Source: a virus (taxonomy: Duplodnaviria > Caudoviricetes). Taken from it: 64,000 bases of DNA. Every line of letters begins with the position of its first letter. Position 1 is the stretch's first letter. Positions 2,798-27,500 of the stretch are shown in pieces. The stretch spans positions 13,275-77,274 of IMG/VR virus record IMGVR_UViG_2811995040_000001; one strand, given 5' to 3'. The position numbers and the translations under genes were made by a program. A model generated the notes under the pieces. That model saw nothing but the letters and a program-made list of their open reading frames with translations, made no database searches and was not told the origin of the DNA.

Positions 2798-3367
2798 CTA
2801 TCTTAAGGTAAAATTCTCACGTTCGGTATTAAAATAACATTCGCTCTTTCTAACTATCATATCACTACGGATAGGCTCCTGACTCAAAGGGTGATTGAAT
2901 TCCAGAGACAGCAGGTTGAGAAATGCCTCTTTATCAAATAAGTAACAAACATCTGACCGTGATGATACTTTAACAAAAACGCCGTTTGTTGGAATATCCT
3001 TCGTTATCGGACATGTTAAATGTCCTTCAGAGCATGTAAAACTTCCTGCTTCTACCTGAAAACTACATAAATCAATCTTCCATGTAATATTTAATTCGCG
3101 TGCCAGCTTTTTTGCATTGTCCCACCTTGCTGTATCATTACTATAAACCTGCCCTGGCTCACGCCATGGAACCACGTAAAATGTACCTTCGTCGGGCTGA
3201 TGACGCACCTGGTATAGCGCATCACATAGTTGCACCTGAATTTCAGTCGGCCCAGGCGCGCCATCAGGAGGTCTGGCTGCATTACGTATACTGTCGAGCA
3301 TATCTGAAGGATATGTCTCTATTGTCAACCCGTGAAGTAAATTTAAATTTGGGAAACTTAATGGCGT
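2798..3367 (-). CDS. NleG-like U-box E3 ligase effector, copy 1 (start codon mutated to ACG; possible pseudogene)
   Basis: CPIT..P.NGVFVK...SDVC.LFD..AF..HPLSQEPI motif (DUF1076/NleG); ACG at 3365-3367 is in frame where the paralogues have ATG. Confidence 0.75.
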   Translation of the reverse strand, partial: TPLSFPNLNLLHGLTIETYPSDMLDSIRNAARPPDGAPGPTEIQVQLCDALYQVRHQPDEGTFYVVPWREPGQVYSNDTARWDNAKKLARELNITWKIDLCSFQVEAGSFTCSEGHLTCPITKDIPTNGVFVKVSSRSDVCYLFDKEAFLNLLSLEFNHPLSQEPIRSDMIVRKSECYFNTERENFTLR

Positions 3368-10244: not shown

Positions 10245-10817
10245 CTATCTTAAGGTAAAACAATCACGTTCGGTATTAAAAAAACATTCGCTCTTTCTAA
10301 CTATCATATCACCACGGATAGGCTCCTGACTCAAAGGGTGTTTTAACTCCAGGGACAGTACGTCGAAGAATGCCTCTTTATCAAATAAGTGACAAACATC
10401 TGACCGTGATGATGCTTTAACAAAAATACCGTTTTTTGGAATAGCCATCGTTATCGGACATATTAAATATTTTTCAGAACATGCAAAACTTCCTGATTCA
10501 ACCTGAAAATTACATAAATCAATCTTCCATGAAATTTTTAATTCGTTTGCCAGCTTTTTTGCATTGCCCTCCCTTGCTTGATAAGTAAGAGGATGCAACC
10601 CCGGTTCATACAACGGAACCACGTCAAATAAGCCTTTATCGGGCCGATGACATACCTGGTATAGCGCATCACATAGTTGCACCTGAATTTCAGTCGGCCC
10701 AGTCCCGCCATCAGGAGGTCTGGCTGCATTACGTATACTGTCGAGCATATCCAAAGGATATGTTTCTATGTACCCATCAAAGGTATGTAAACGTACATTT
10801 GGAAAACTTAATGGCAT
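10245..10817 (-). CDS. NleG-like U-box E3 ligase effector, copy 2
   Basis: MPLSF N-terminus; CPITMAIPKNGIFVK..SDVCHLFD..HPLSQEPI. Confidence 0.85.
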   Translation of the reverse strand: MPLSFPNVRLHTFDGYIETYPLDMLDSIRNAARPPDGGTGPTEIQVQLCDALYQVCHRPDKGLFDVVPLYEPGLHPLTYQAREGNAKKLANELKISWKIDLCNFQVESGSFACSEKYLICPITMAIPKNGIFVKASSRSDVCHLFDKEAFFDVLSLELKHPLSQEPIRGDMIVRKSECFFNTERDCFTLR

Positions 10818-11089
10818 ATTTTATTTCCTTTTATATTATTAATATCAAAAATACAGCAGCTATTAATTTCTTTTAAAAAGATACCTCACATCATCTCACT
10901 AGCATCCATCCAGTGCTGATACTTAAATATCCTCAAGGTTTTAATATCTTTAATGCAACGCTTTCAATCATATTTAGGACACATTCCATTTAGTCTGCTG
11001 ATTATTCACACATAGTTTCATACGGGACTCAGCTCCTCCTTCCTGGTATTCCATTTTCATGCAGATTTCACTTCCCGGTAATTTCCCCA

Positions 11090-11136
11090 TTGACTGCTCC
11101 CCGCCCTGAAGGACAGGGATTCCCGGAGGCATTTTG
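11090..11136 (-). mobile_element. 47-bp IS605-derived micro-element (12-nt left end plus right-end hairpin)
   Basis: Minus strand TCAT|CAAAATGCCTCC-GGGAATCCCTGTCCTTCAGGGCGGGGAGCAGTCAA; both parts match the ends of 5969-7259. Confidence 0.8.
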
Positions 11137-11188
11137 ATGATTGCCGGAGCCGGGTTTCACTTCGTGATGCCTGCAGGAAACTTTCTGT

Positions 11189-12301
11189 TTAACGCCCCTC
11201 GCCAGGATTGTTTAACAGGTTCATACTGAACGCCAGATTTTCGGCATTCCATTCTCCACCATCCACAGGGGATGCCATGAACTTACTAAATGTGGTAAAC
11301 CCGGTCACATCCGCCCTTCGCTCGGTGATAGTCTCCACCGGCAGCTGTGTTGTACCTTCGGTTATCTGATAACGCAGCCGGTTTTCCGGCGCTATAGAGT
11401 CACGATAAACTACATTCAGCGCCACGCCCAGTATCGCCTTCCCTGTACTGTCCGGCAGCTCAAACGTCACGCTGGCCGGTTGCGCCACCGGCTTCACCGC
11501 CAGCACCCCCATATCATTATTCGGGTCCAGCGTGTTCAGTGCAGTGACAATATCCTCACCGTGAGTGTTGCTGTGCCGGTCCCCCTCGTAAGAGGCTACT
11601 TTAAATGGCTCCAGCGTAAGATTACCCAGCAGATGCGGCGTTACCGTGTGGTCGCTGTTATAATCCAGTTGAGCAATATAAATATCTCCGACCATAAAGC
11701 TGAAACCATCCTCTTTCACCGGGCTGAATACTGACCCGACCGTCAGTGCAAGAGGGTATTCACCGTGACTGCCAGCCATTGTCAAAGTAAGGTTTTCCAC
11801 AGGCTGGCGGCTGACATACACCTGTACAGTTGCATTTACCCCCTGACTGTCCGTGCTTATTACCAGCTCATAGTACGCGCTGGTTTCCTCCGTTGCTGTT
11901 CTGACACTATTCACCCTTGTGGGCGCAGTCCCATTTCTTGGTATCGATAACATAGTAGTGTTCACCTGCGAGAGTACTACCGGCTTCTGACTCAGGCGGA
12001 AACCTACCTGTATGGCCTGCGCCTTCAGATCCAGCATTCGGGGGAGCAGTTCCAGCGTGCATGTTGCTGCAGACATGTTTTTTTCTGTCTGCGCCTGCAG
12101 GCCATAAAATGTATTGCCCTGCACCATCATACTGCCTGTCCGGATAACCGACTTTCCTGGCACAATGTCCCTGAAAGCAGTAATGCCGCACCGTTTCAGG
12201 GCCTCCACCGGCTCCCCGGTAATCTCACCAGGCGTTATCTGTTTAAATCCGACCAGCGTTCTGATGTCCAGTACTGTCAGGGGATTAACTGTATTCGTCA
12301 A
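11189..12301 (-). CDS. Hypothetical phage protein, probably tail-associated
   Basis: 370-aa ORF co-oriented with the tail operon; no recognised motif. Confidence 0.55.
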   Translation of the reverse strand: MTNTVNPLTVLDIRTLVGFKQITPGEITGEPVEALKRCGITAFRDIVPGKSVIRTGSMMVQGNTFYGLQAQTEKNMSAATCTLELLPRMLDLKAQAIQVGFRLSQKPVVLSQVNTTMLSIPRNGTAPTRVNSVRTATEETSAYYELVISTDSQGVNATVQVYVSRQPVENLTLTMAGSHGEYPLALTVGSVFSPVKEDGFSFMVGDIYIAQLDYNSDHTVTPHLLGNLTLEPFKVASYEGDRHSNTHGEDIVTALNTLDPNNDMGVLAVKPVAQPASVTFELPDSTGKAILGVALNVVYRDSIAPENRLRYQITEGTTQLPVETITERRADVTGFTTFSKFMASPVDGGEWNAENLAFSMNLLNNPGEGR

Positions 12302-12302
12302 C

Positions 12303-12560
12303 TCACACCTCTTTTGTCACTAAAAGAAAACCGTGGAGACTTTTCACCGGTTTAACCAGTGTGTCCCCACCACTCAGGACCACTCCACCGACAGTCCTGA
12401 CGGGCACGTTAAGCATAAGCCCTCTGCTGACGGCCTCTCCCCGCAGAGACCTGACCACCACCGATAATCCTGCGTTCTGCATCACCGAGCCATACACTTG
12501 CCTGACGGAAATGAAGGTATCAGGGGTATACCGGTTACCGCTGAGCAGTAACATAAACAT
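12303..12560 (-). CDS. Hypothetical phage protein
   Basis: 85 aa, strong AAGGAGG RBS, abuts the downstream ORF. Confidence 0.55.
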   Translation of the reverse strand: MFMLLLSGNRYTPDTFISVRQVYGSVMQNAGLSVVVRSLRGEAVSRGLMLNVPVRTVGGVVLSGGDTLVKPVKSLHGFLLVTKEV

Positions 12561-12595
12561 ACTGACCTCCTTATGTGTCCTGCTTGTGATTTAAT

Positions 12596-13728
<1,133 letters not shown>

Positions 13729-13729
13729 T

Positions 13730-13912
13730 ATGAAGACCATCATTTACGATTACAGCTCTGAATTTCCTGACTGTGGCGTACTGGCAGACCTCCCTGACGG
13801 GGAAGGGGTTTTCTTTAATACATTTGATGACTTTATGTCGTTTGTGGATGATGAGTTTTCTGATGTGCAGCTCGTTCCCCTGTTTGAGGAGGGCGAAAAT
13901 GAGTACATCTGA
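13730..13912 (+). CDS. Small acidic hypothetical protein
   Basis: 60 aa, starts 1 bp after the recombinase stop and overlaps the rep start. Confidence 0.5.
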   Translation: MKTIIYDYSSEFPDCGVLADLPDGEGVFFNTFDDFMSFVDDEFSDVQLVPLFEEGENEYI

Positions 13913-15044
13913 CAACATGGTGCGTGTTGATGCGCTGTCTTTCTCTTTCAGCATTTCATATATGCGTGACCTTTCGAAATGGTATGAGTTTAGCAGAGCA
14001 TCAGGCTATAACGGTGTTCTCCCTGAATTTCCGGTTCCGCCCTCACAGACTGATTTCAGAACCGGATTAACCCTGTCATCAGATGTGTATCAGCGTTTAC
14101 TGGATGATTACTATCAGGAGTATTACAACGCGGTTTACTCGCGCATTTTCCTTTTTTTCGACCGAATTTTCGGACTGTCAGTGGGACCGGTGCGTTCCCG
14201 TGGTATGCAGGGCTATACCCATTCCTGCCGTCTGTTTTCATCGGATGGTCAGCATGAATGCGGCTGGCTGATGTTTGGTGGGGCTAATCAGAAAGATACC
14301 GCGCATGTGCAGCTCTCCGGCGTGGGGTGTCGTCATCTGTTTATGAACATCACGCCGTATCTTCTCTGGAATACGCTTAAGGGTCTGGGGGTGACGCGCC
14401 TGTCACGTGTTGACCTGTGTTTTGATGACTTTACCGGAAATTTCGGTACAGCCTATGCACTGACGGCTTACAAGGACAGGGCTTTTCTCACGGGTAAAGG
14501 TGGTCGTGTTCAGGAACTTGATGTTCGCAGGCCTCTGGCGGGTGAGTCACTCAAAGGTGACACGGTATACATTGGAAAACGTAAATCCTGTATTTACTGG
14601 CGAATTTACGATAAGGCTCTTGAACAAAAAATTGAAGGTGTTTCCTGGTATCGCTCAGAAGTGGAATTAAAAAAAGTCACTGTTGATGTACTTTCTGATG
14701 TTGACGCATTTTTTGCGGGTATTTGTGATTATTCTGCCTCTCTGTTGAGTGGTCATATTGAGCATATACGCAAGCTCCCGCGCGATGAACGCCAGAAAAT
14801 GAAAAACCTCCTGCCCTGCCTTGAATTACTGGGAAGGATAAAGCGAGTCCGTCGCCAGTTCGGAAAAATAGCGTCTGAGGTGCTGGATATTTTCGATGGT
14901 GATACTGGTGCAGTCTTCGGTCTGCTTGCCAGTGATGAGGCAATAAATAAATTTAATCTGGGTGAATACCAGCGTTCTCTTAAACAGGGTGGCGTGATAT
15001 TCAGCCATTCCCGACAGAAACAACGTTTATATGGAGTAAATTAA
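13899..15044 (+). CDS. Rolling-circle replication initiator (Rep_trans / RstA-like)
   Basis: LSRVDLCFDD, TVYIGKRKS..WRIYDKALEQ and WYRSEVELK; GAGGAGG RBS upstream of 13899. Confidence 0.88.
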   Translation: MSTSDNMVRVDALSFSFSISYMRDLSKWYEFSRASGYNGVLPEFPVPPSQTDFRTGLTLSSDVYQRLLDDYYQEYYNAVYSRIFLFFDRIFGLSVGPVRSRGMQGYTHSCRLFSSDGQHECGWLMFGGANQKDTAHVQLSGVGCRHLFMNITPYLLWNTLKGLGVTRLSRVDLCFDDFTGNFGTAYALTAYKDRAFLTGKGGRVQELDVRRPLAGESLKGDTVYIGKRKSCIYWRIYDKALEQKIEGVSWYRSEVELKKVTVDVLSDVDAFFAGICDYSASLLSGHIEHIRKLPRDERQKMKNLLPCLELLGRIKRVRRQFGKIASEVLDIFDGDTGAVFGLLASDEAINKFNLGEYQRSLKQGGVIFSHSRQKQRLYGVN

Positions 15045-15046
15045 TT

Positions 15047-15367
15047 ATGCAGACCGGTTATATTTTTCGTGGTATTTGCCTGGCAACCAGGGTGAAAGAA
15101 AGTTCTTTTGACGGAAAAGTCAACACCAGATATTTCCTGGGGGTAATGTCATCCGTTCGCAATGAATATGGTGTTGAAGACCAGAAAACTCAGGAATTCA
15201 GAATTCCAAACAGCAATGATTTCACTCAGGTGCTGAATTATTATAATTCGCTGAAAGGAAAAATGGTGGAGGTTTCCTTTGAGAACCGTGCTTATACGCT
15301 TGATGATGGTCGTAAAGGCTCTAATATCTTTGTGACAGGTGTTATTGAGGTTAAGCCGGAAAAATAA
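15047..15367 (+). CDS. ssDNA-binding protein (pV/RstB-like)
   Basis: 106 aa directly after rep; position and beta-rich composition. Confidence 0.6.
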   Translation: MQTGYIFRGICLATRVKESSFDGKVNTRYFLGVMSSVRNEYGVEDQKTQEFRIPNSNDFTQVLNYYNSLKGKMVEVSFENRAYTLDDGRKGSNIFVTGVIEVKPEK

Positions 15368-15391
15368 CATCTACACAACAGGATATTCTCT

Positions 15392-15616
15392 ATGACCGAA
15401 ATTAATAATGTCACAGGTAATATATGTGATGTAGTAACGGGTGTTTGCCATTCGGTAATCTTATCTATAAATTCAGTGCCTGTTACATTTGCTTCGTCTG
15501 GTACTGATTTTAAAGTATCTGCTGGTTATTTTGCTGCTGCCTTTATTCCTACGCTTAGTTTATGGCTGGTTGCAAAATCATCAGGGATAATACTGGAGTT
15601 TATACGCAGGTTATAA
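15392..15616 (+). CDS. Minor coat protein (pVII/pIX-like)
   Basis: 74 aa with a C-terminal TM helix, between ssb and the major coat gene. Confidence 0.55.
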   Translation: MTEINNVTGNICDVVTGVCHSVILSINSVPVTFASSGTDFKVSAGYFAAAFIPTLSLWLVAKSSGIILEFIRRL

Positions 15617-15651
15617 ACTCTTTCATTAAATATCATTTGAAAGGTTATCAT

Positions 15652-15876
15652 ATGTATAAATCAATATCTTCTCGCGTAATTATTCTATTAGCTTTTATTC
15701 TCTCTGCTATTTCTGTTCCCGCAATGGCTGCAGGACCGGATTTTACGTCACTGACTGATGCCGTAGATTTTTCTACTGTACAGACAGCTATTCTTGCTAT
15801 TGCTGCATTAGTTGCTGGCGTTTATGTCCTGATTTCTGGTGTTAAGAAAGTACTGAGTGCTATCAAATCTGCATAA
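15652..15876 (+). CDS. Major coat protein pVIII
   Basis: Signal peptide ending AMA, acidic N-terminus, TM helix and basic tail VKKVLSAIKSA; terminator follows at 15889-15918. Confidence 0.85.
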   Translation: MYKSISSRVIILLAFILSAISVPAMAAGPDFTSLTDAVDFSTVQTAILAIAALVAGVYVLISGVKKVLSAIKSA

Positions 15877-15918
15877 TTTATTCTGAATAAGGAGGGGGAG
15901 TTCTGCTCCCCTTTATTT

Positions 15919-15999
15919 ATGGCTGAACTGTGGAATATTGTCTTTTTTGCATGGGGTCTGTTATGCGCCTGGATCGTGGTTCGTGGTTTCGACGACTGA
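15919..15999 (+). CDS. 26-aa hydrophobic minor coat-like protein (not in the ORF track)
   Basis: MAELWNIVFFAWGLLCAWIVVRGFDD*. Confidence 0.5.
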   Translation: MAELWNIVFFAWGLLCAWIVVRGFDD

Positions 16000-17645
16000 C
16001 GGTTTATTATCTTTGCTTCTGCGTCGTTTTCGTATCTTTTCCGCGCAGAACTGAAGCTGCGTTTCCCCTTGCTATCCCTATAGTGATGGCGGCTGTACCT
16101 GCCGGAACGACTTCACTTTCTGCCATCAGTGGTGTGACACTGAGTTATATTGCTTATACCCTGGGGATTACTGCTGTGGCCACGACGGCAGCAGGTGTTG
16201 CTCTTGAATATAATGGCAGAACGTCATCCAGCACAGGAGCAAATCTTCGTCAGGATGGTATTCCTGTAGCGGGTTCTACGATGATCTCGATGGGCGTGAC
16301 TAAGCCTTCTGACTGGGATATGCCTTACCATGGTGGGCGTCTGGTTAATGTGACGTCATCTTCTCAAATGGCATCAATTGCGCCGGGTCTTATAAATTCA
16401 CCCTCGTTATATTCTCCACCGTCATTACTTAATCCTGTCCCTGTTTATATTCCACCTAAGCCAGTTATCAGTTATCCGTCTGCGCCGTCAGGGGTTAAGT
16501 TTACGTCCTATCCGGGAGGTGTTTATAATATTAAATCAAACATAATTTCCGATGATATTAATCCGGATAATCTGAATTATATTTCTGCATCAGATATCAG
16601 TGAACTTGCCAGTTTTATTCTTGCCAATAATAAAACAAAAACAGACTATGCCTTTGAACGTATCCGTGGTGGTTATAGTGCATTATATAATGGTGGCAGA
16701 ATAAACGACCACGGTGTTTATCGTGATGGTTATGCCTGCGGTGATTTACTTCCACCTCTTGATTATCCCCAGATAATCAGCACTGTTACATCTTCTTCTC
16801 AGACCGGGCGGTATATGATTGACGGCTCTGTTAAAACACTGCCAGCGTTATCGCATATTCAGATTTATGTACCTGCTGTGAGTTATAGCTGTTTTCTTCC
16901 TCAGTCTGTTGGAGGGTTAACCAGTATCAGTAACTCTGTTGGTTCAACTACTATTGCTGATATTACTGTTTCCCCTAATCCGTCATTCATTGATATTTCC
17001 GGCAGTAATCAGGATGTAGACAATCCCCAGCTTTTACCTCCTCTGGGTCAGGTTGCTGGTATTCAGGAGGATTTTAAATATCGTTATTTAACACCTGCTC
17101 AGATAGCTTCCTTTATCAATACAGCATGGCAGCAGGCATCGGCAAGGGAAGGTTATAAAGGAATTCCTTATTCATCTTCCATTGCTGCCACGCCTCAGCT
17201 TATTAAAGATATTATGGATGCGCGGGGAATGTCTTTGTCTCTGTCCTCACTCTTTGAGCCTGTAGGTAAAGCCGGGTACTGGGATATTCCGGTTTATAAC
17301 ATCACTTTAAATCAGTATGTCAGCATTACTAATATTGAAGCCGATCCGGTTATTGATTTTGGCCCGAACCCGGGGGTTACGGCTCCCGAACTGGCACCTT
17401 CTGCGGGTTTCGAAAAACCTCTGGGACCGATTTTTAATATCATGCCTTTTATGAGGGAACTAAAACTCCCGCATAAAGCGTCTTTCTGTCCGACTTTTAG
17501 CTATGACATTCCGCTAATAAACATCAGCGGGAAATTTGATGCCCACTGCCGCATATTATCTCCCCTGACACCCCTTATCTCGCAGATTTTCGTGATTACC
17601 TGGACGCTGCTGGCGCTGTTTATCGTCCTGAGAAGGAAAGGATAA
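15963..17645 (+). CDS. pIII-like adsorption protein 1
   Basis: Signal peptide, YKGIPY, Pro-rich GPNPG..APEL linker, Cys pair and C-terminal TM; start uncertain. Confidence 0.7.
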   Translation: MRLDRGSWFRRLTVYYLCFCVVFVSFPRRTEAAFPLAIPIVMAAVPAGTTSLSAISGVTLSYIAYTLGITAVATTAAGVALEYNGRTSSSTGANLRQDGIPVAGSTMISMGVTKPSDWDMPYHGGRLVNVTSSSQMASIAPGLINSPSLYSPPSLLNPVPVYIPPKPVISYPSAPSGVKFTSYPGGVYNIKSNIISDDINPDNLNYISASDISELASFILANNKTKTDYAFERIRGGYSALYNGGRINDHGVYRDGYACGDLLPPLDYPQIISTVTSSSQTGRYMIDGSVKTLPALSHIQIYVPAVSYSCFLPQSVGGLTSISNSVGSTTIADITVSPNPSFIDISGSNQDVDNPQLLPPLGQVAGIQEDFKYRYLTPAQIASFINTAWQQASAREGYKGIPYSSSIAATPQLIKDIMDARGMSLSLSSLFEPVGKAGYWDIPVYNITLNQYVSITNIEADPVIDFGPNPGVTAPELAPSAGFEKPLGPIFNIMPFMRELKLPHKASFCPTFSYDIPLINISGKFDAHCRILSPLTPLISQIFVITWTLLALFIVLRRKG

Positions 17646-17708
17646 GATGAATTTTACTGATTCAGATGACTACTCAGAATTACGGTTATTAATGAGATTC
17701 GCCCGTAA

Positions 17709-17763
17709 CGCTCGCCACAGACAAGTGACCGAACGTAGTGAGCGAACGGTCGAGGAAGCGGAA
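17709..17763 (+). promoter_or_regulatory. Primosome assembly site (ssi/pas)-like sequence
   Basis: CGCTCGCC.CAG...GACCGA.CG.AG.GAG......CGAGGAAGCGGAA resembles the recalled ColE1-type pas. Confidence 0.55.
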
Positions 17764-17838
17764 TTTCACCGGAACTGGCAGGGGAACGCCGTACGCCCTT
17801 TTTTTTCATATGGAATAAGAAATAAGTATTGTTGCGCA

Positions 17839-19347
17839 ATGATGATCTGGTCTTTTTTATTCTTTCCGGCGTTCGCCGTCGCATCTCCGGTAAATGGAGG
17901 TGTCCTCGGTGCGTCCGGGAACATACATGAGGTATTGTCTGTGGTCATGTCCGTAAGGGTGAATGATATTATTGCCCGTGAGACTGAGGACGGAAATGAT
18001 GTGCTACCTGATGCTTATCCTGAAACTGTCAGGGGCGTTTCTTTGTCGCTGACGGGTATGGTTAATCTTTCGGAATACAGCAGATATAACGGGAGGTCAT
18101 GGGCTAACATATTTCTCAGCTCTCACAACCTCTCGGCATCATTCTTTGACTCGCCTGATGTTTCTTTCGGCTGGGGAGGTAAAAGTTGTCAGGGGGTGCT
18201 TAATTGGGCAGTAGCAGGTTATCCTCAGTTTAATGCCAGTTTAACTAATCCGGTTCCCGAAATTAATGGTGTATGTAAGCAGTCCCCTTATCATGCCACG
18301 CCGGGCGCTTATTTTTCCTCGCGTGCGGGCAATGTATATTCCATGCGTTATCAGGATGGATATATTAACGGATATACATTTAATGATGTTGTAAATTACT
18401 TTAATGAGGTATATCGCGCTGCTCTTTATCGTCAATATGAGAAAAGCTTTCAGGATTTCATTAATAAATATCCGCTATGTTCATCGTTTAACCTTGACAT
18501 ACAAGATAAGGATGAAATAAAAGAATCGGGGCAAAACTACGCTTATAATATAAACGGTCAGTCTGTTTCCCTGATGAGTTCTTATAAAGTTAAGCTTTCA
18601 AGCCCGTTTACAGAATCCTGTACTTTGAATGACCGTCCTGTTACTGAAAAAGGGGGGGATTTCCCTCTTGTTGATACTTCTGTTTTTGTTAATGCGCCTG
18701 TTTTTGAGAATGGAATGGTTAACAACTTTATTCCTGATATATTTAACGGGAGAGATGCTTTGCTTTTAAATTCATATATGTCATCTATGTCTCGAAAAAT
18801 CATTCCGGCACTGGCTTTTTCAACACTGCTGAATATGGCGTGGTCTGAGGCTTCAGCTTCGCCAAATTATAAAGGTATACCGTATTCAGAAAGTTACCGT
18901 ATTACTGAATCTGATGTTATGTCAGTGATGAATAACCGCAATGTTAATCCTTCAGCGGCTGATGCCTATGCTCAGATACCCGATCAGGGTGTTTATCTGA
19001 TGTACTGGAGCGATACACATAATTCGTATGTCACTCAGGAGGTTTTTGACGCATCTAAAAAGGTTGAGGTTGATTTGGGACCTAATCCGGGAACTGAAGC
19101 GCCTGAACTTGTTCAGGGGGCGCTGTCTGATGCCCTTAATCCACTTTTTAATGTGATGCCATTCCTGAAAAATTTCCGTCTTGATCCTCATGCGTCGTCC
19201 TGTCCGGTGTGGACTTATCAGGTTTTTGGTCAGGCTATTCCAATGACTTCATTCTGTACACTGGCAGAGGATAACAGAGAGATGATTTCTTTATTCTTCA
19301 TTATTCAGTGGACGATTATTTCTCTTGTGATCATTGTGCGTACGTAA
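17839..19347 (+). CDS. pIII-like adsorption protein 2
   Basis: Signal peptide MMIWSFLFFPAFAVA; C-terminal ~200 aa paralogous to protein 1. Confidence 0.7.
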   Translation: MMIWSFLFFPAFAVASPVNGGVLGASGNIHEVLSVVMSVRVNDIIARETEDGNDVLPDAYPETVRGVSLSLTGMVNLSEYSRYNGRSWANIFLSSHNLSASFFDSPDVSFGWGGKSCQGVLNWAVAGYPQFNASLTNPVPEINGVCKQSPYHATPGAYFSSRAGNVYSMRYQDGYINGYTFNDVVNYFNEVYRAALYRQYEKSFQDFINKYPLCSSFNLDIQDKDEIKESGQNYAYNINGQSVSLMSSYKVKLSSPFTESCTLNDRPVTEKGGDFPLVDTSVFVNAPVFENGMVNNFIPDIFNGRDALLLNSYMSSMSRKIIPALAFSTLLNMAWSEASASPNYKGIPYSESYRITESDVMSVMNNRNVNPSAADAYAQIPDQGVYLMYWSDTHNSYVTQEVFDASKKVEVDLGPNPGTEAPELVQGALSDALNPLFNVMPFLKNFRLDPHASSCPVWTYQVFGQAIPMTSFCTLAEDNREMISLFFIIQWTIISLVIIVRT

Positions 19348-19357
19348 GGAGTTTTAT

Positions 19358-19648
19358 ATGCATGCGATTCTGATTTCAGCCTTTAATTCTGTACTCCGTT
19401 TTCTGCTTGGTCAGGCGACGATTAAATCCGTTATATTTATTGTGCTGACCTACCTTATATCAGAGATTATTTCCGTGGTTAATAAGCTCTTGCCGGACTC
19501 CACTAATCTGATTGCATTATTTAATTCACTGCCTTCTGAAGCGTGGTATTTCATTAATCTTGCTGAACTGCCTTACGGTCTGTCACTGATATTTTCATCA
19601 CTGCTGACCCGGTTTATTTTCGGGATGATCCCGGTTGTGGGGCACTGA
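19358..19648 (+). CDS. pVI-like membrane protein
   Basis: ~96-aa hydrophobic ORF between pIII and Zot. Confidence 0.7.
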   Translation: MHAILISAFNSVLRFLLGQATIKSVIFIVLTYLISEIISVVNKLLPDSTNLIALFNSLPSEAWYFINLAELPYGLSLIFSSLLTRFIFGMIPVVGH

Positions 19649-19658
19649 CGGGGGGGTT

Positions 19659-20759
19659 ATGGCTATTTCGGGTTACATTGGTCTTCCCGGTTCAGGGAAG
19701 TCATTTGAATGTGTTTCAAATGTGCTTTTACCTGCGGTTCAGGCAGGGCGACGGGTTATCACGAACATCATCGGCGTTAATCCTGATGTGATTTATGATT
19801 ATTGTGTTGATACCCTGAATCTCGATCGTGCTTCGCTGGGTGTTGTGGTCGTGGTTGACAGCAGGACCATGAAGCAGCGTGATTTTTTTCCTTACAAGAA
19901 TGCTAATGATGAAACGGTGACGGATACGTTCTGCCAGCCTGGTGATTTGATTATGGCAGATGAGGCATGGCGGCTCTGGCCTAAAGACAGCGATGTATGC
20001 ACTGAGCACCGCTCGTTCTTTGCGGAGCATCGCCATTTTACAAATTCTGTCGATGGAACATCCTGTGATTTTGTTTATATGACGCAAAGTCTTGCCACGG
20101 TTGCGCGTTATATTCGCGACCGACAGGATAAAACGTTTCGCATGAAAAAATTAACATCACTGGGGATTTCAACCCGTTACCGTGTCGATGTTTTTGAAGG
20201 GGCTAAAACGACAAAAGCGGCGTTAATTCAGCAGTATCAGTGTTCGTATAAAAAGCAAATATTTCCGTTATATAAATCTCATGATACTGAGAATGGTCAG
20301 GAAAAAGTTGTTGATAAACGCCAGTCTTTTCTTAATGGCCGTTTCTTCTTTCGTCATCTTTTTATTCCTTCTGTATTACTGACAATAGGGGGGTATTTCA
20401 TTTTTAATATTGCTCATAAATATATGTTGTCGCCGGAAGATAAAATGAAAACGGAACAATCATCTTCCGTTGTTCCTGTCCCTACTAATGTACTTCCTGT
20501 AGCCGTAACGGCAGAAAATCACATGGTATCAGCAGCATCAGCGCGTTCTTCGGTGTCATCCACATGGCGTATTGGGGGGCGTATGGTAAAAGATGACCTG
20601 TCATATGTAGTGCTGGTTAATGTAGATGGTCGTGTTCGTATGGAATTGCTGAATGGGTTTTCTTTTAACGGTTTGTATATGAGCGGATTTGTTGATGGTG
20701 AAAAAGTGACGGTATGGTCAGGTTCTTTGTCCGGCTCAGGTGCGGGGTTATTAAAATGA
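19659..20759 (+). CDS. Zot/pI assembly ATPase
   Basis: GLPGSGKS Walker A, ADEAW Walker B, EHRH, TQ and a TM segment. Confidence 0.92.
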   Translation: MAISGYIGLPGSGKSFECVSNVLLPAVQAGRRVITNIIGVNPDVIYDYCVDTLNLDRASLGVVVVVDSRTMKQRDFFPYKNANDETVTDTFCQPGDLIMADEAWRLWPKDSDVCTEHRSFFAEHRHFTNSVDGTSCDFVYMTQSLATVARYIRDRQDKTFRMKKLTSLGISTRYRVDVFEGAKTTKAALIQQYQCSYKKQIFPLYKSHDTENGQEKVVDKRQSFLNGRFFFRHLFIPSVLLTIGGYFIFNIAHKYMLSPEDKMKTEQSSSVVPVPTNVLPVAVTAENHMVSAASARSSVSSTWRIGGRMVKDDLSYVVLVNVDGRVRMELLNGFSFNGLYMSGFVDGEKVTVWSGSLSGSGAGLLK

Positions 20760-21994
20760 ATAAATATATTATGGTGTTATTATTACTGTTTTCAGCCAGG
20801 GTAATGTCTCAGGGTGTGACACTGGAATTAAACCGGGTAACGTTACCGGAAGTGATTCATATGTTGTACAGCGATGTGTTTAATCGCCCTTATATGCTCG
20901 CGCCTGAGCTTGCAGGGGATACGCGGATTCTGTCGTTGCGTATCACACCGGATGTGGATGAAAGGGCGTTTATAGAGCGTTATTTCGGGAATCTGGGAAT
21001 TAAAATATTTACCCGTGACGGGATTGATTATGTTGCACCAGTTATCAAAAAATCTACTGAACCTGCCAGGGAGGTTTTTGTCTACCGACCACGCTTTCGT
21101 TCTGTCGCGTATTTATCTGAACTGCTGAGAACCTTTGTGGAGGGGAATTTTAGCGCAACAGCTAACGGGGTGGGGGATTTTACTGTCACACCGGATAAAA
21201 TTAAACCGGGCACAGCAACGGATAACATTAATCGTACCGGGGATAAACTGGTGTTTTACGGTACACGTGAAAATATCCGGCGTATTGAAAGGATCCTGCC
21301 GGAAATCGATATTGCAGGGGATGAGGTTTTCGTAGGCGGTTATGTTTTTGAGGTACAGACGAAGGAGCAGAACGGCAGCGGGCTTGCACTGGCGGCGAAG
21401 TTGCTAAGCGGAAAAGTGAGTATCGGCATGGGTAATCTGTCGGGAGGTTATGAAAACTTTATCCGTATTGGGGGATCGTCACTCGATGCCATGTATGAGC
21501 TTTTCAGGACAGACAGCCGCTTTAAGGTGGTCAGTTCTCCGCGGCTTCGGGTTAAGAGTGGATATTCCGCGACATTTTCCGTTGGTCAGGAAGTGCCTGT
21601 ATTATCTGGCGTTGAACACAATAATAATTCGTCGTATCAGTCTGTTGAATATCGATCTTCCGGGGTTATCCTCGATGTGCAGCCGGAGGTACACGGCGAT
21701 GTAACGGACGTGAAGATAAAGCAGCAACTGAGTAATTTTGTGCAGACTGAAACGGGCGTCAATAATTCACCGACACTGATTAAGCGTGAAGTGGAAACGT
21801 TTGTTTCGGTTAAGTCCGGTGACATTATCCTGCTCGGTGGACTTGCTGAGACAAAGAACTCTGACAGTAAGACCGGCTTTTCATTTCTGCCGCGTTCGTG
21901 GATGTCTTCATCGGATGAGAACAACAAAACAGACATACTGATACTTTTGCAGGTTCGGTCAGAGTCCCCAGTGAAAAAGATGCTAAAGAAATAA
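20756..21994 (+). CDS. pIV secretin
   Basis: SSPRLRVKSG..A.FSVGQEVP, VEYRSSGVIL.V.P and GDIILLGGL. Confidence 0.9.
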   Translation: MNKYIMVLLLLFSARVMSQGVTLELNRVTLPEVIHMLYSDVFNRPYMLAPELAGDTRILSLRITPDVDERAFIERYFGNLGIKIFTRDGIDYVAPVIKKSTEPAREVFVYRPRFRSVAYLSELLRTFVEGNFSATANGVGDFTVTPDKIKPGTATDNINRTGDKLVFYGTRENIRRIERILPEIDIAGDEVFVGGYVFEVQTKEQNGSGLALAAKLLSGKVSIGMGNLSGGYENFIRIGGSSLDAMYELFRTDSRFKVVSSPRLRVKSGYSATFSVGQEVPVLSGVEHNNNSSYQSVEYRSSGVILDVQPEVHGDVTDVKIKQQLSNFVQTETGVNNSPTLIKREVETFVSVKSGDIILLGGLAETKNSDSKTGFSFLPRSWMSSSDENNKTDILILLQVRSESPVKKMLKK

Positions 21995-22003
21995 GGTAAT
22001 TAG

Positions 22004-22103
22004 TGCAGGATTGAACGAAATCGTCGGGCAGATCCTGCATGTAAAATTGTATCTTTTGTTGTGCGTGGCATTAGTTGACGTTTGTCTGCGTGGCTACGTC
22101 AAC
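22004..22103 (+). other. Two hairpins after gene IV (packaging-signal or terminator-like)
   Basis: TGCAGGAT/ATCCTGCA and GTTGACGT/ACGTCAAC inverted repeats. Confidence 0.4.
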
Positions 22104-22405
22104 AATGATGCGAATGATTATTGATTGTACGTTTTTTTTACAGATCAGTTATTCAAAATATTTCAATTAAATAAGCAATCATTGGGATTGAGCCATGATT
22201 TTGTCAAATTCATTTTAATAAAAAGTATTTTATATTTAGTAAATTATAAATACTTTCATTATAATTTAATCACTTCAAAAAAAACGAATATATTAGCTTT
22301 ATTTTTTTGTTGATCTTTTATATTTGCGGTTTATATAGTAGCTCCAAGGCCTTATCTATACTTAGTCATTTTAATATGTTGGATCGAAGATATTTGAGGT
22401 GTGAA

Positions 22406-22951
22406 ATGATGTGGTTTTTTGGTGTTTTAATTTTATTGTTTTTGTTAGTCGTTATTCCTTTTTTAAAATTGAAAAATTCCAATCGTTATAATGCAGAGAT
22501 AAAAAATAAAGTCAAAGCTACGGATATAATGAAAAATAACAATAAATCCTTCGAGAGAAAACCTTTTTTAACTACAAGGGAACGTGATTTTTTTAAGAAG
22601 TTAATAGAGGATCTTAAAAGTGAATATTATGTTTTATCACAGGTTAGAGTGGTTGACATAATAACCCCAAATAGACAATTCATCGAAAGCAGCAGGGAGT
22701 TCAATGCGTTATTTAGACAAGTTTCTCAGTGGCATTGCGATTTTTTAATCATTAATAGAGATTTTAATGTTGAGCTTGCAATTGAGTTGGATGATTCAAC
22801 TCATAAGCATCCCAAAAGGAAAAGAAGAGATGAAATTTTTAATACAGCATTTAGCCATTCCGGGGTTACTCTAATTAGAGTAGTTGATTACAACCAGTTT
22901 CTTAATCTCCCTCAGAGTGGTTTATTTTTAAAAAATAATGACTCAGTTTAA
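22406..22951 (+). CDS. DUF2726-like membrane-anchored nuclease-fold protein
   Basis: N-terminal TM; LTTRE..F, QVRVVD, HCDFLI, AIELDDSTH and RD. Confidence 0.7.
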   Translation: MMWFFGVLILLFLLVVIPFLKLKNSNRYNAEIKNKVKATDIMKNNNKSFERKPFLTTRERDFFKKLIEDLKSEYYVLSQVRVVDIITPNRQFIESSREFNALFRQVSQWHCDFLIINRDFNVELAIELDDSTHKHPKRKRRDEIFNTAFSHSGVTLIRVVDYNQFLNLPQSGLFLKNNDSV

Positions 22952-22969
22952 ATTTTTATATATGTTTTT

Positions 22970-23270
22970 TTTATGCCTGTTAAGGCATGGTAGCGAAGCG
23001 ATACCCCGCAGCGCATGCGCGAGGACTCAGAAAGCCTCACGATTCATCGTGAGAATTCCCTTATACTGCAAAGCTGCTTTTAAGCTTTTTACCGATTTGA
23101 AGTAGCTTGTGTTACCTACGTCGCCTTTTATTGAGCGTTGACTGAAGTATCCGCCGCCCCCGCAGGTTCGAGGAGGCGGCGGATACAAGGACAATGCGAG
23201 TATCTAAGACAGTCTCTTAGAAAAGCTGATGCTCATCTGTATCCCCGTATCTGTAATACGGGGGTTAACT
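22970..23270 (+). other. Inovirus intergenic origin region with putative nick-site hairpin
   Basis: Several hairpins including TATCCGCCGCC/GGCGGCGGATA and CCCCGTAT-CTGTA-ATACGGGG (23243-23263). Confidence 0.55.
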
Positions 23271-23411
23271 CAGTACTTATATGCGGCTTTCCCTAATTTT
23301 TACCTTTCGGTTTTCCCGCTTTTGATATTTGAATCCAGTCTTGAACTTTGAATTTTCTACTTTTATATGTGATAGAGATCATGTTTAACATAGTTGCTTA
23401 CGTGATTCGCC

Positions 23412-23451
23412 TTGACATCCTCCACGTCCTTTAGGACGTGGAGGATGTTAA
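23412..23451. repeat. 40-bp palindrome of two IS605-type right ends head-to-head
   Basis: TTGACATCCTCCACGTCCT-TT-AGGACGTGGAGGATGTTAA, 19-bp arms with one mismatch. Confidence 0.7.
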
Positions 23452-24473
23452 ACTGCCATTGCCATAGTGCCTGTCAGTGTTTCTCCATCCCAAAGCACTG
23501 TGATGACAGTTCGGGATGCGGACAACTGCGGGGTATCATTCTGCGACCAGTTAATATTCTCCGGCCAGGTGATGGTCCCCCCCTGCCCCCGGAAAACCAG
23601 CGCCAGCACCATCGCCCGCCCTTCAGGTAAACGGGTAAACGTCACCGTGTTATCCTGTGTGCCGTCCAGGATGAATAACTGGTGTGACAGTGCATCGACC
23701 ATGCCGGCTGAGGAGGACACGGCTACATCAAAAGCCCCCTGGCGCACCCACACTTTATTGCGCCGCACATAACATATACTGTCTTCAGGCGCTTCCGTTA
23801 CCGTTATTGAGGCAGCGGCCTCCTGCGCAGCAACTTTGGCTGCATCAGCCTTCGTGGCTGAGTCAACAGCGTCTGCTGCACTTTCTGCCGATGCTTTTTC
23901 TGACATGGCGGCAGCCTGCTCACTTTTCCGCGCGGCAACCGCATTATTCTCAGACCTGCGACTGGCCTGAACTGCGCTCTCTTTTGCGGCTTCAGTCTGC
24001 GTGGCTGTAGCTGCAGCAGCTGCAGCACTTTCCGCTGATACCTTTTCTGACATAGCGGCAGCCTGCTCACTTTTCCGCGCGGCAGTGGCACTGCCTGAAG
24101 CACTGTCTTCTGCCTCTCTGGCTTTATCAGCACTTTGTCTGGCCTGCGATGCCAGCTCCTGAAACAGCTTCATAGCCTCGCTGGTCAGGTCTTCATCCTT
24201 CACCGCACGCAAGTAATCATTCAGTGCCCCGTCCGGTGAGTCAGGCCGGACCTCAATGTTCCCGACCAGAGCTGGTGGAAAGCCTTCCACCGCCAGCGTC
24301 ACGGCATAGTCTCCGGGCTGTGCATCAATACGATATTTTCCGGCTTCCGTGCCAATATCTGCAGTGACAGTCGCAATCACCGCACTGGTTGTGTTCAGCG
24401 CCCGCAAACGGATGGTACAGCCCGGTACAGGCTGACCAGCACCATCAATAAGAGTGCCTGATATAACTGGCAT
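23448..24473 (-). CDS. Side tail fibre (Stf-like N-terminus)
   Basis: MPVISGTLIDGAGQPVPGCTIRL..PDGALNDYL; Ala-rich repeats AARKSEQAAAMSEK x2. Confidence 0.85.
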   Translation of the reverse strand: MPVISGTLIDGAGQPVPGCTIRLRALNTTSAVIATVTADIGTEAGKYRIDAQPGDYAVTLAVEGFPPALVGNIEVRPDSPDGALNDYLRAVKDEDLTSEAMKLFQELASQARQSADKAREAEDSASGSATAARKSEQAAAMSEKVSAESAAAAAATATQTEAAKESAVQASRRSENNAVAARKSEQAAAMSEKASAESAADAVDSATKADAAKVAAQEAAASITVTEAPEDSICYVRRNKVWVRQGAFDVAVSSSAGMVDALSHQLFILDGTQDNTVTFTRLPEGRAMVLALVFRGQGGTITWPENINWSQNDTPQLSASRTVITVLWDGETLTGTMAMAV

Positions 24474-24516
24474 ATCACCTCCATAAAAAAAGCCCGCAGG
24501 CAGGCTTCCCATTTAT

Positions 24517-24541
24517 CAGAATGCCTCCGGGGAGCAGTCAA
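24517..24541 (+). mobile_element. 25-bp IS605 scar (left-end tip fused to right-end tip)
   Basis: TTAT|CAGAATGCCTCC-GGGGAGCAGTCAA. Confidence 0.7.
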
Positions 24542-24578
24542 ATTTGTTCCTGTTAAACGAAAGGGACCGGAAATCCGG

Positions 24579-27500
24579 TCAGTTTGTGAAGTTGCTCCCC
24601 GACCGGGAAACCATCACCAGCGGCCAGACGGAAGCTTCAGTGGTGTACTGCCCACGGACCCTCAGAGAGACGCTGATATCCACGACAGGTGAAGTGGTGT
24701 AGACAGAAAAGACAACGGTCTGATACATAGCCGGAAGCCCTGCGGTATACGGGATAACCTCCCCCGTTTTCACCTGCCCGTTAATATTTATCGTGACGGT
24801 GATGGCACCGGCGCCACCGTTACGCTCACAGTTAGCCATCACCGTGATGGTTTTCCCTATCTGATAGGTGGCGCTGTCGGTATACCGTGTTGAGGTGCTG
24901 CGTTCGTCGTTCGTCGCCCTGATGCTCACGCCCTGCATGACTTTTGAGCCGCAGATATCACCGACAAACTCTCTTGCTTCTATCACGCCAGAAAACTTAC
25001 CGGAGGTGGCATTGATTTCTCCCGTAAACGAGCCAGATACAGCGTTGATATGGCCGCTGATATCCGCATTTTTCGCAGTAAGACGACCGTCCGGCGTCAG
25101 GGAAAACGCAGGAGGATTCCCGCCACTGGTGATGGTCGGCGCGCTCAGATATTTCAGGAACACCTCGTTCATTATTATCTGGTCGCCCTGCATGACGAAT
25201 CCGGGCGTCTGGTTTCCGTTTTGCGGGTTAATGAATGCAATGCGATCCGCCGCCACCAGGAACTGGCTCGCCTTCCCGTCCGGCGTATCCTCCATGCTCA
25301 GGCCCAGACCAGCCACATAATGCCTGCCGTCCTCGGTTTGCTCTATCTTCACGCCCCACATGGCATTCCACTTTCCGTTCGCGTCCTGCCATTCTTTCGA
25401 AAACTCATCCAGCCGGCTGGCGTTGTCTTCCGTCAGCTCCACCTTCTCCAGCAGTTCTTTCCCCAGGTGGCTTTCGGTGATTTTCCCTTTGAAGAAATCC
25501 AGGTAACCCGCCGCATCGTTGCTGGCCTGCCCGGTCGCCTCCACGAATGCGGATTTACCGACCTGATTTACCGCCCGGATATAAAAATAGTAATCCCTGC
25601 CGGGCCTGATATTCACACTGGCCGCTATCCAGTACAGCGCCGTTCCCAGATATCGTGCGGCGTTTTCCACCTGATGGATATCCGTAATCTGCGCGTCTGA
25701 AAACCAGAACTCATACTGCACCGTCGGGTCGTATACCGCCTGACGCGGTGTGGCTGTAATCTGGAAATAGCCAGGGGTGAGTTCGATAAATGATGGTGCC
25801 GCCGGCGCGGAGATGCTGAACTGTGTGCTCGCCGGGTCTCCCTGTTGTCCCTGGTTGTTCACCGCCCTGACGGACAGGGTGTAGCGCCCCGGCGTCAGCC
25901 CCCGGAACCGGTACTGCGTATCCGGCGTTCCTGCGCTGCTTACCAGCCGGTCACTGCCATCTTCCGCCGCCACGTTCAGGCGCAACGAAAAAGAGACGCC
26001 CTTAACGACTCGCGGTGTGTCCCAGCGCGCCAGTACCTGATACTGTCCCTCCTCCGCCAGAATTTCTGTGGTCAGATGCTGTATCGCCGGGGGAACGGTG
26101 CCGTGAATCGTTCCGGGTTGCGGATCGAATGATGCCCCGTTGTCCACGATGGACTCTTTTTCCGGCACATGCTGTACGGCGGTGATGGCATACGTTCCGT
26201 CGTCGTTTTCCCGGACAGCCACACACCGGAAGAGACGCTGGCGCAGCGACGGCAGTTTCAGCCCCCAGACGCTGTATTCCGCCACGCCGTCCGGTATCCG
26301 GCTGACCTGAACCTGCACACCGTCGGTAACAGACTGCACGTCCACGCTGACCGGCAAGCCTTCGCCATCCACCAGGCTTATCAGCGTGGTGCCGGACGAC
26401 GGCAGGGTAATCTCCCTGTCAAGGGTCAGAATGCGGCGGGCGCGGTCAACGGACAGAATCCGCCCGCCCAGGCTGATGCCGGCATAATCCTCGTCGCAAA
26501 CCTCAATCACATCACCGGGAACGTGGCGCAACCCCTCCGCCCCCACACTAAAATCAACCGTCTGGGTTTCCAGCAGCTCCGTTTTTATCAGCCACAGCCC
26601 GGCGCGGTGCGCCTGCCCGCGACTGGTACAGCCAAACGCATCCATTTTTACCAGATTGCGTCCGTAGTGACTGATGGCGACCGTGTCTTCCACCAGTTCC
26701 GTGGATGTCTGCCAGCCATTATCAGGGTCGATCCAGTTCACCTCTACCGCATTATGGCGGTCCTTCCGCGCACTGAAGCTGTAACGGAACGGTGTACCCT
26801 CATCCGGCATTACCACATTGCTGCGGGTATAGGTCCAGACTGTATCCGAGGGCCTGTCCTGCACGAAGGTCAGCCTCTGCCCGTTCCACACCGGCATACA
26901 ACGCATGGCGGAGCAGAAGTCGGTCAGCACATCCCACGCCTTACGCTGCTGTGCCAGATACGCATTAAAGGTCATACGCGGCTCTGTCCCGCCGAATCCG
27001 TCAGGGACCATCTGGTCGCAGTACTGGCCTATTGCATACAGCGCCCACCTGTCCACGTCCGCCGCGCCGATTCGCTGTCCCATGCCATAACGGGGATGTG
27101 TCAGCACATCCCATAAACACCATGCCGGATTATTGCTGTATGCAGGCTTGAACGTGCCGTCCCAGATGCCGCTGTAGGTTCGCGCTACCGGATCGTAATT
27201 CGACGGCACCTGAATAATCCGCCCGAAAAAATGGTAATTTCGCGTCACCTGCTGGCTGCCGAACTGCTCAGACTCCACCTGCAGGCCAATCACGGCGGTG
27301 TTGGGATAGCGCTGCCGGACATCAATAATCTCGGTATACGACGACCAGACCGTGTTGTTCTGTAACTGGTCAGTGGTACTGTCTGCCGTCACACGTACCA
27401 TCCGGATACCAAATGGCCGGGGAGGGAGATTATCCACTATCACCGAGGCCAGATACTGTGTGGTTGTTTTCCCGGTAATCGTAATCTCTTTTTCCACCAC

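Follow-up and report, generated by a model that had tools for sequence, protein, structure and literature searches.

The window analysed here, a stretch of 64,000 nucleotides included in a 77-kb provirus record, contains one phage inside another: a 10.8-kb insert separates the tail-fibre gene of a lambdoid Salmonella prophage from the next co-oriented gene. An earlier note on this DNA had read the insert as an inovirus with a TGCTT core at both ends, integrated in the manner of IS110-type elements. The question that the locus raises is where exactly the insert begins and ends, what placed it there and how the site was chosen. The data make it very probable that a 10,827-bp inovirus integrated at a CT dinucleotide between the two genes by means of its own IS110-family recombinase, the RNA encoded upstream of the recombinase gene being most likely a bridge RNA. 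This reading is built on the observed empty site, the limits of the element, the catalytic residues of the recombinase, a covarying RNA structure and the covariation of guides with target and donor across relatives. The features of the locus are listed in Table 1.

Table 1. Features of the inovirus and its insertion site (positions in the window; the RNA and its guides are predicted)
Feature	Position	Strand	Details
85-aa ORF of the host lambdoid prophage (left flank)	12303..12560	-	Start codon 12558-12560; AAGGAGG is the complement of 12567-12573
Left core copy	12570..12573	.	CT at 12570-12571 plus TA common by chance to donor and target; joint 12569 to 23397
Element left end	12574..12599	+	Contains the left TGCTT (12581-12585) and a TG-n-TTTAAT extended -10 box (12587-12595)
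Putative bridge RNA	12600..12747	+	5' end guessed from the -10 box
Left target guide	12634..12642	+	ACTCCTCCT against left target plus core TGACCTCCT: 6/9, contiguous at the core side
Right target guide	12658..12664	+	ATGTAAG, reverse complement of CTTACGT (23397-23403): 6 Watson-Crick pairs and 1 G-U
Candidate left donor guide	12704..12710	+	ATTGTTG against ATAGTTG (23390-23396): 6/7; core not covered
Right donor guide	12730..12736	+	ACATAAG, reverse complement of CTTATGT (12570-12576): 7/7; just 5' of the recombinase RBS
IS110-family (DEDD plus Tnp) recombinase, 326 aa	12748..13728	+	PF01548, PF02371
Rep_trans initiator	13773-15044	+	
G5P-like ssDNA-binding protein	15047-15367	+	
Coat protein	15562-15876	+	phrog_2186, 8e-17; Pfam score below cut-off (21.2 against 27 bits)
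Two paralogues of about 570 aa	15930-17645 and 17647-19347	+	
DUF2523 protein	19334-19648	+	
Zot/pI ATPase	19635-20759	+	
Secretin/pIV	20714-21994	+	
DUF2726 protein	22307-22951	+	
Element right end (left donor)	23388..23396	+	ACATAGTTG; identical in all 11 related inovirus prophages
Right core copy	23397..23400	.	CT at 23397-23398 plus TA; overlaps the right TGCTT of the earlier note (23395-23399)
Right flank to tail-fibre stop	23401..23447	.	15-bp-stem palindrome (23415-23448), outside the element
Tail-fibre gene of the host lambdoid prophage, 354 aa	23448..24512	-	

The ORFs from 12748 to 22951 all lie on the plus strand. We took as an inovirus a co-oriented set, within about 6-12 kb, of a Rep initiator, an ssDNA-binding protein, a small coat protein, a Zot/pI ATPase and a pIV secretin, and all of these are present (PF02486, PF17426, PF05707 and PF00263; phrog_453, 2186, 197 and 1012). 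The Pfam and PHROG matches bear out the earlier identification of the 10.8-kb insert as an inovirus, one that has its own recombinase at its left end. The two ORFs of about 570 aa both match the C-terminal part of phrog_3942 and phrog_7187, and look like a tandem duplication of a large (perhaps pIII-like) phage protein.

The flanking DNA is that of a lambdoid prophage: to the right lie gpJ and the tail fibre, and to the left is cargo that includes an NleG-family ORF. The earlier note had the tail-fibre ORF ending at 23448 and the 85-aa ORF starting at 12560 behind an AAGGAGG, and both are there. The block left of the insertion (10245-12560) is made up of a 190-aa ORF belonging to the NleG family of type III effectors (PF06416, 3e-33), a 370-aa ORF (phrog_8291) and the 85-aa ORF. 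Genome G211 has this left block at 99% identity, in a different context with neither the tail fibre nor the inovirus. The end of the homology to G211, at 12576, was considered as the junction and rejected; it is a mosaic boundary, the left flank lying in another context.

There was no tail-fibre 3' region beyond the conserved 5' part in any of five Salmonella species genomes, so no empty site could be read from them. Exact-pattern searches of viral contigs with the left flank, the right flank and the conserved RNA stretch gave no match, and a protein scan of viral contigs with the recombinase gave no relative. Megablast with the left flank found nothing in E. coli genomes or phage records, and a distant search of phage records with the tail-fibre flank returned just two 9% matches (Gifsy-1 and Gifsy-2). 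Because the viral, phage, E. coli and species-genome collections contained no related prophage with an empty site, public sequencing runs were searched.

The query for the run search was window 22400-25500, of which one third is element and two thirds are flank. The share of sampled words was 1.00 in three rows (marked as potential sources of the DNA), 0.82 in X4, 0.76 in X5 and 0.66 in eleven rows (X6-X16, from four studies), the last being the value expected if the flank alone is present. Contigs of X6, X13, X16 and X4 were placed on window 11000-25500, with X5 and the eight further 0.66 rows left out. In one contig each of X6, X13 and X16, from three studies, position 12569 is joined straight to 23397: the contigs span 11040 to 12569 and then continue at 23397. 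The number of bases absent is 10,827, and four letters (CTTA) can be assigned to either side, so the empty allele reads ...CTGACCTC[CTTA]CGTGATTCGCC... in all three. The element is present at the same site in run X4, whose contigs 11051-15618 and 22983-25500 cross both junctions; this run is without cover at 15619-15653, 20402-20411 and 22167-22982, gaps that are uninformative. Position 23493 is G in the three empty-site contigs and A in the window and X4, so the inovirus-free allele is marked by at least one nearby SNP. The exact limits are now set for a prophage that is nested within another prophage and adjoins effector cargo genes.

These contigs show that, with the element removed, only a short intergenic region separates the tail-fibre stop from the next co-oriented gene, as the earlier note had supposed; it measures about 60 bp. 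Its right boundary was correct to one base; its left boundary was 12 nt off, too far to the right. It had also named empty alleles joined at a position other than TGCTT as the outcome that would count against its core, giving the TTAA at 12591/23448 as an example. Empty alleles do join elsewhere, at 12569/23397 and not at that TTAA.

The CT is the sole overlap common to the junctions of all 11 related inovirus prophages described below. There is no target-site duplication in the empty-site contigs or in five relatives with empty sites, where insertion is precise at CT. Nor are there terminal inverted repeats: when the first 50 nt of the left end are set against the final 50 nt of the right end in reverse complement, 16 of 50 positions are identical and no 6-mer is in common. 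An exact match to the right-end sequence ACATAGTTG occurs nowhere else in the window. Two copies of this motif with a single mismatch (ACATAGTTGCA) occur at 3224-3234 and at 10671-10681, the latter within the NleG-like ORF; they are probably due to chance (20 matches at two mismatches or fewer, against 17 expected). With the core at 12570-12573 and 23397-23400 and the left TGCTT inside the element, the circle junction would not be catagtTGCTTgtgatt, as had been predicted; we infer instead that ...ACATAGTTG-CT is joined to TATGTGTCC.... No such back-joint was seen in the contigs (as distinct from reads) examined from X6, X13, X16 and X4. The correction to the att prediction matters in practice, as primer or read searches would otherwise target the wrong junction.

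The gene at the left end of the element encodes an IS110-family recombinase (PF01548, 2e-20; PF02371, 2e-16), which together with precise insertion and the lack of a target duplication upholds the proposal of IS110-type site-specific integration. The protein matches the structures of ISCro4 (9t56, 1.8e-29) and IS621 (8wt6, 3.5e-29) in the PDB, and is 31% identical to the IS621 copy annotated in L079. Using the catalytic residues listed for IS621 in PMC11208158, D18, E62, D104 and D107 align with D11, E60, D102 and D105 of its RuvC-like DEDD domain, and S246-G247 align with S241-G242 of the Tnp domain, which includes the catalytic serine. Bridge RNAs are established for IS110 elements, and the structures of IS621 and ISCro4 have been solved together with bridge RNA (PMC11208158, PMC11208160). 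The gene of one E. coli relative is already annotated by NCBI as 'IS110 family RNA-guided transposase'.

Ten related inovirus prophages, in Salmonella and E. coli, have the same right terminus, ACATAGTTG-CT, as the phage in the window, making 11 in all. Five of the ten were compared with empty sites, and in each the insertion is precise at the CT core and without duplication. The closest recombinase among one-per-species genomes (61% identical) is that of L002, in the S. enterica subsp. diarizonae type strain, where it lies at the left end of an inovirus with a GPA-type Rep and Zot. The L002 site is empty in three of four other Salmonella species genomes, where it reads CCTACCTCCTTA|GCAGACAAG. 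When occupied, the left end reads ...CCTCCTTA|TATGTTC (in longer form ...CCTCCTTA|TATGTTCTGCATG...) and the right end ...ACATAGTTGCTTA|GCAGAC (in longer form ...TTAACATAGTTGCTTA|GCAGACAAG). Comparison of the occupied and empty L002 sites identifies the stretch homologous to window 12574-12585 as inserted DNA, and at the position of the left TGCTT it reads TGCAT.

Of 5,426 complete E. coli genomes, 57 carry DNA that matches the RNA-plus-recombinase region at 66-70%. Four of the loci were examined, and each proved to be an inovirus prophage, 9.5-11.5 kb long, whose recombinase lies at its left end; they are inserted between gntX and bioH, between hcaR and hcaE, inside murP and between ymdA and csgC. 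Their empty sites in other chromosomes correspond exactly to left flank-CT-right flank, one with a SNP. One E. coli record, W03, has six related inovirus prophages of 11.2-11.6 kb at six sites (L082 and L105-L109). Their RNA-plus-recombinase modules are 90-100% identical, and there are five distinct pairs of target guides (L107 and L108 share one), each of which matches the site of its phage. A more distant IS110 element (66% identity) is also present on the W03 chromosome, in five copies.

What the targets have in common is TC-CT, which in at least six of the 11 cases, with the flanks read by eye, is the complement of the ribosome-binding site of a leftward gene. The crossover falls at the 5' edge of the RBS of such a gene in the window (12563-12573) and in the left flanks of L002, L079, L080, L106 and L107, and in four annotated or ORF-called cases it is 10-11 nt before the start codon. 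The left target guides (CCTCC or CATCC) resemble the anti-Shine-Dalgarno sequence.

Plain IS relatives of 1.2 kb, with recombinases 46-49% identical, share with the window the conserved 150 nt 5' of the recombinase gene. We aligned 14 sequences (A1), folded the alignment with RNAalifold and counted the pairs. The fold has two modules: in one, a P1 stem surrounds an internal loop and a GGGU...GCCC hairpin; in the other, a CCC/GGG stem surrounds a second internal loop and a hairpin. In the window the P1 stem (12618-12630 with 12671-12682) surrounds the loop for target binding, and the CCC/GGG stem the loop for donor binding. Standard pairs are found in 95.1% of cells, in comparison with 82.6% in shuffles (0 of 500 reach 95.1%) and 22-50% when the partners of the 21 pairs are slid. 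Changes on both sides occur in 9 of the 21 pairs (6.6 in shuffles), and the single-sequence fold of the window RNA agrees with the alignment fold. There was no match to the RNA region in Rfam, which may contain no such family. Taken together, these data suggest that the RNA of about 150 nt most likely acts as a bridge RNA, and it would then be made and be needed for recombination.

Two further points concern the fold. The sequence CAGTCACTC, on the 5' side of the second half of the RNA, was considered as a donor guide and rejected, being the 3' strand of the P1 stem in the alignment fold. In L107 and L108, both outside alignment A1, the hairpin of the target-binding loop is GTG...CAC where it is elsewhere invariably GGG...CCC, a compensatory change.

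By the rule described in PMC11208160, a left guide has the sequence of the top strand of the left arm plus the core, and core plus right arm, in reverse complement, give a right guide. The segment of the RNA that follows GCCCGT changes with the right target of each element, and the segment that precedes the RBS with its right donor. For the right target guide, 52 of 55 non-core positions agree over the 11 inovirus elements, where shuffling of the targets gives 24.5 ± 4.2 (0/20,000); for the left target guide the values are 57 of 77 and 43.1 ± 3.0 (0/20,000). These shuffles ignore relatedness, L107 and L108 sharing one RNA and L079 and L105 a right guide, and similar targets occur. Element by element, the right target guide matches at 5, 6 or 7 of 7 positions and is perfect in nine of the 11. 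When plain IS copies are added, the left target guide has 3.86 cognate matches of 7 as against 3.48 non-cognate, a small excess, since a TCC motif is common to all guides.

The right donor guide matches at 7-8 of 8 positions in all 11 elements, and tracks the left-end states CTTA, CTAG, CTGG and CTTG; among the plain IS elements the rows of L084 and L088 were left out of this comparison as out of register. The left donor guide matches at 5-7 of 7 positions across elements, and in the plain IS relatives ACAGTTG matches the donor ACAGTTG at 7 of 7; it is weakly tested because the donor hardly varies. Additionally, the bases after the right guides fit the 'handshake' rule (PMC11208158) when alignment A1 is read by eye: CA after the right target guide can pair with TG of the donor, and GA or GU after the right donor guide can pair with TC of the target.

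The clearest pair of relatives is L080 and L081, phages that are 97-99% identical and lie at different sites. Their first 200 nt differ at seven positions; the left target guide accounts for six of these and the right target guide for the seventh. The 11-nt site CCTCCTTACGT, which is specified by the two target guides of the window phage, occurs once in the 4.5-Mb genome G211 (L103, G211:C1:2758109-2758119). It is unrelated to the tail-fibre region and is a possible secondary site.

A promoter scan of the integrated form found none. If the phage ends were joined, they would give TTGCTT (-35), 17 nt and TG-n-TTTAAT (-10), as seen by eye on the inferred junction, with the -35 matching at only 3 of 6 positions. 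The same split layout is seen by eye in L002, L079 and L080, and IS621 is described as having a split promoter with the -35 in the right end and the -10 in the left end (PMC11208160). We suggest that the promoter forms only across the circle junction. The integration pathway would then be as follows. The replicative form would join the right end to the left end, and the joined ends would build the promoter for the RNA and the recombinase. One loop of the RNA could pair with the chromosomal target ...CCTC-CT-TACGT... and the other with the joined phage ends ...ATAGTTG-CT-TATGT..., so that the RNA would bridge the phage junction and the chromosomal site while the enzyme exchanges strands at CT. 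The phage genome is in effect the cargo of an IS110-type module, lying between its recombinase gene and its right end. For IS621, excision is reported to be less efficient than insertion (PMC13626964).

Three other explanations were weighed against integration by an RNA-guided recombinase of the phage. The earlier note placed the crossover in TGCTT at 12581-12585 and 23395-23399, giving an element of 10,814 bp and the empty site gtgtccTGCTTacgtgatt. The letters are as it gave them (gtgtcc-TGCTT-gtgattt on the left, catagt-TGCTT-acgtgat on the right), the pentamer does occur at both places, and its right copy overlaps the true core. This model is refuted because it needs a skip of 10,814 bases from 12580-12585, whereas the contigs of three studies skip 10,827 and join 12569, or up to 4 positions beyond it, to 23397. 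The core is thus CT, with CTTA shared, and the left TGCTT lies inside the element, within the stretch (12574-12585) that is homologous to the left end of L002 and is inserted DNA by the evidence of empty sites there. TGCTT is a chance repeat: there are 153 copies in the window (170 expected), and 66% of random pairs of 40-nt windows have a direct 5-mer in common, so that one would be expected by chance in that share of such pairs. We give a TGCTT core practically no chance. The same note had tied the target to a nearby IS605-type palindrome, in the manner of IS621 at REP sequences. The hairpin at 23415-23448, with its 15-bp stem, is real, and it occurs once in the window; at the ten other related insertion sites there was no perfect stem of more than 5 bp within 70 nt on the right-target side, and the link is not supported for these two reasons. 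The comparison with IS621 and the Nf phages is itself apt because the element carries an IS110-family recombinase. It is also very improbable, if slightly less so than a TGCTT core, that host XerCD at a dif-like site or another host pathway integrated the phage, as with CTXphi and Ypfphi, and that the IS110 gene is a passenger insertion sequence. Use of XerCD is common among inoviruses (PMC11209303). Here, however, the left and right ends of the IS110 element are also those of the prophage, 10.8 kb from each other, the surroundings of the recombinase gene yielded no second right-end motif, and a CT core is present at each of the 10 other, unrelated sites that the related phages occupy. Unlike phages of the CTXphi type, this one has a recombinase gene of its own at the prophage end.

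The remaining explanation accepts the recombinase and dispenses with the guide: protein-DNA contacts alone would select sites through a short TCCT motif and the conserved ends, and the upstream region would be a leader or promoter. A constant part in the specificity is indeed suggested by TC-CT, which is common to all targets, and by the right ends, which are identical throughout. However, the upstream segments change with the right target (52 of 55 positions) and the right donor (7-8 of 8) of each element, L080 and L081 differ within their first 200 nt only in guide segments, and the covarying structure places those segments in internal loops. Additionally, the homologues IS621 and ISCro4 were solved with their bridge RNA (PMC11208158, PMC11208160). 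Selection by protein contacts alone is therefore unlikely, though less remote than the other two, and a bridge RNA remains the reading that we prefer.

One of the known systems closest to the module is the IS621/IS110 group as described by Durrant et al. (2024; PMC11208160) and Hiraizumi et al. (2024; PMC11208158). The two have in common DEDD RuvC-like and Tnp domains with five catalytic residues, a CT core, the lack of target duplication and inverted repeats, an RNA region (here putative) upstream of the gene, in which left and right guides in two internal loops correspond to target and donor, 'handshake' dinucleotides that here fit by eye, and a -35 in the right end with a -10 in the left end, which here are candidate boxes read by eye. 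They differ in that the protein is 31% identical to that of IS621, the right target guide in the window has a length of 7 nt, the candidate left donor guide leaves the core unpaired, and targets of the window type are often ribosome-binding sites, judged here from sequence, rather than REP elements. Plain IS110 elements of Enterobacteriaceae (L084-L088 and L095-L098) have the same RNA architecture, CT core and right end ...ACAGTTG-CT; their recombinases are 46-49% identical, and they are about 1.2 kb with no cargo, whereas in the window about 9.7 kb of phage genes lie between the recombinase gene and the right end. The Neisseria Nf (MDA) phages, as described in PMC7058167 citing Kawai et al. 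(2005), are likewise inoviruses with their own IS110-type transposase at one prophage end and a conserved CT at the site. By that description Nf targets the dRS3 repeat, whereas the sites of the phages here are single-copy and vary with the phage. Acinetobacter Af1 (PMC11209303) and Thermus phiOH16/Zuza (PMC11437467) have an IS110-family gene at the prophage end that is thought to mediate integration. They have other hosts, and the accounts of them in these two sources, from which the comparison is made, describe no guide RNA or core.

It is already known that some inoviruses carry IS110 transposases and that IS110 enzymes are RNA-guided. A literature search, with most subscription journals and supplements outside its range, found no description that joins filamentous phages, inoviruses or dRS3 with bridge RNA. 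The present comparison links IS110-bearing inoviruses with the RNA-guided IS110 enzymes, and gives comparative support in that the target guides change with the insertion sites while the rest of the phage is nearly constant. It also offers a natural set of guide-target pairs, as well as evidence for natural cargo of about 10 kb in such a module.

Finally, we lean towards the view that enterobacterial inoviruses use a bridge RNA as a rewritable attachment-site selector, with the whole replicative form as the donor. A few base changes in the target loop would move near-identical phages to new single-copy sites, often the RBS of a gene, and up to six related prophages would in this way share one chromosome. 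This offers an explanation for the coexistence of several related filamentous prophages in one genome. Insertion at an RBS may alter the expression of the adjoining gene, which here belongs to the block downstream of the tail fibre that includes the NleG-like effector gene. If true, this would be natural bridge recombination with a cargo of 10-11 kb, delivered by a secreted ssDNA virus.
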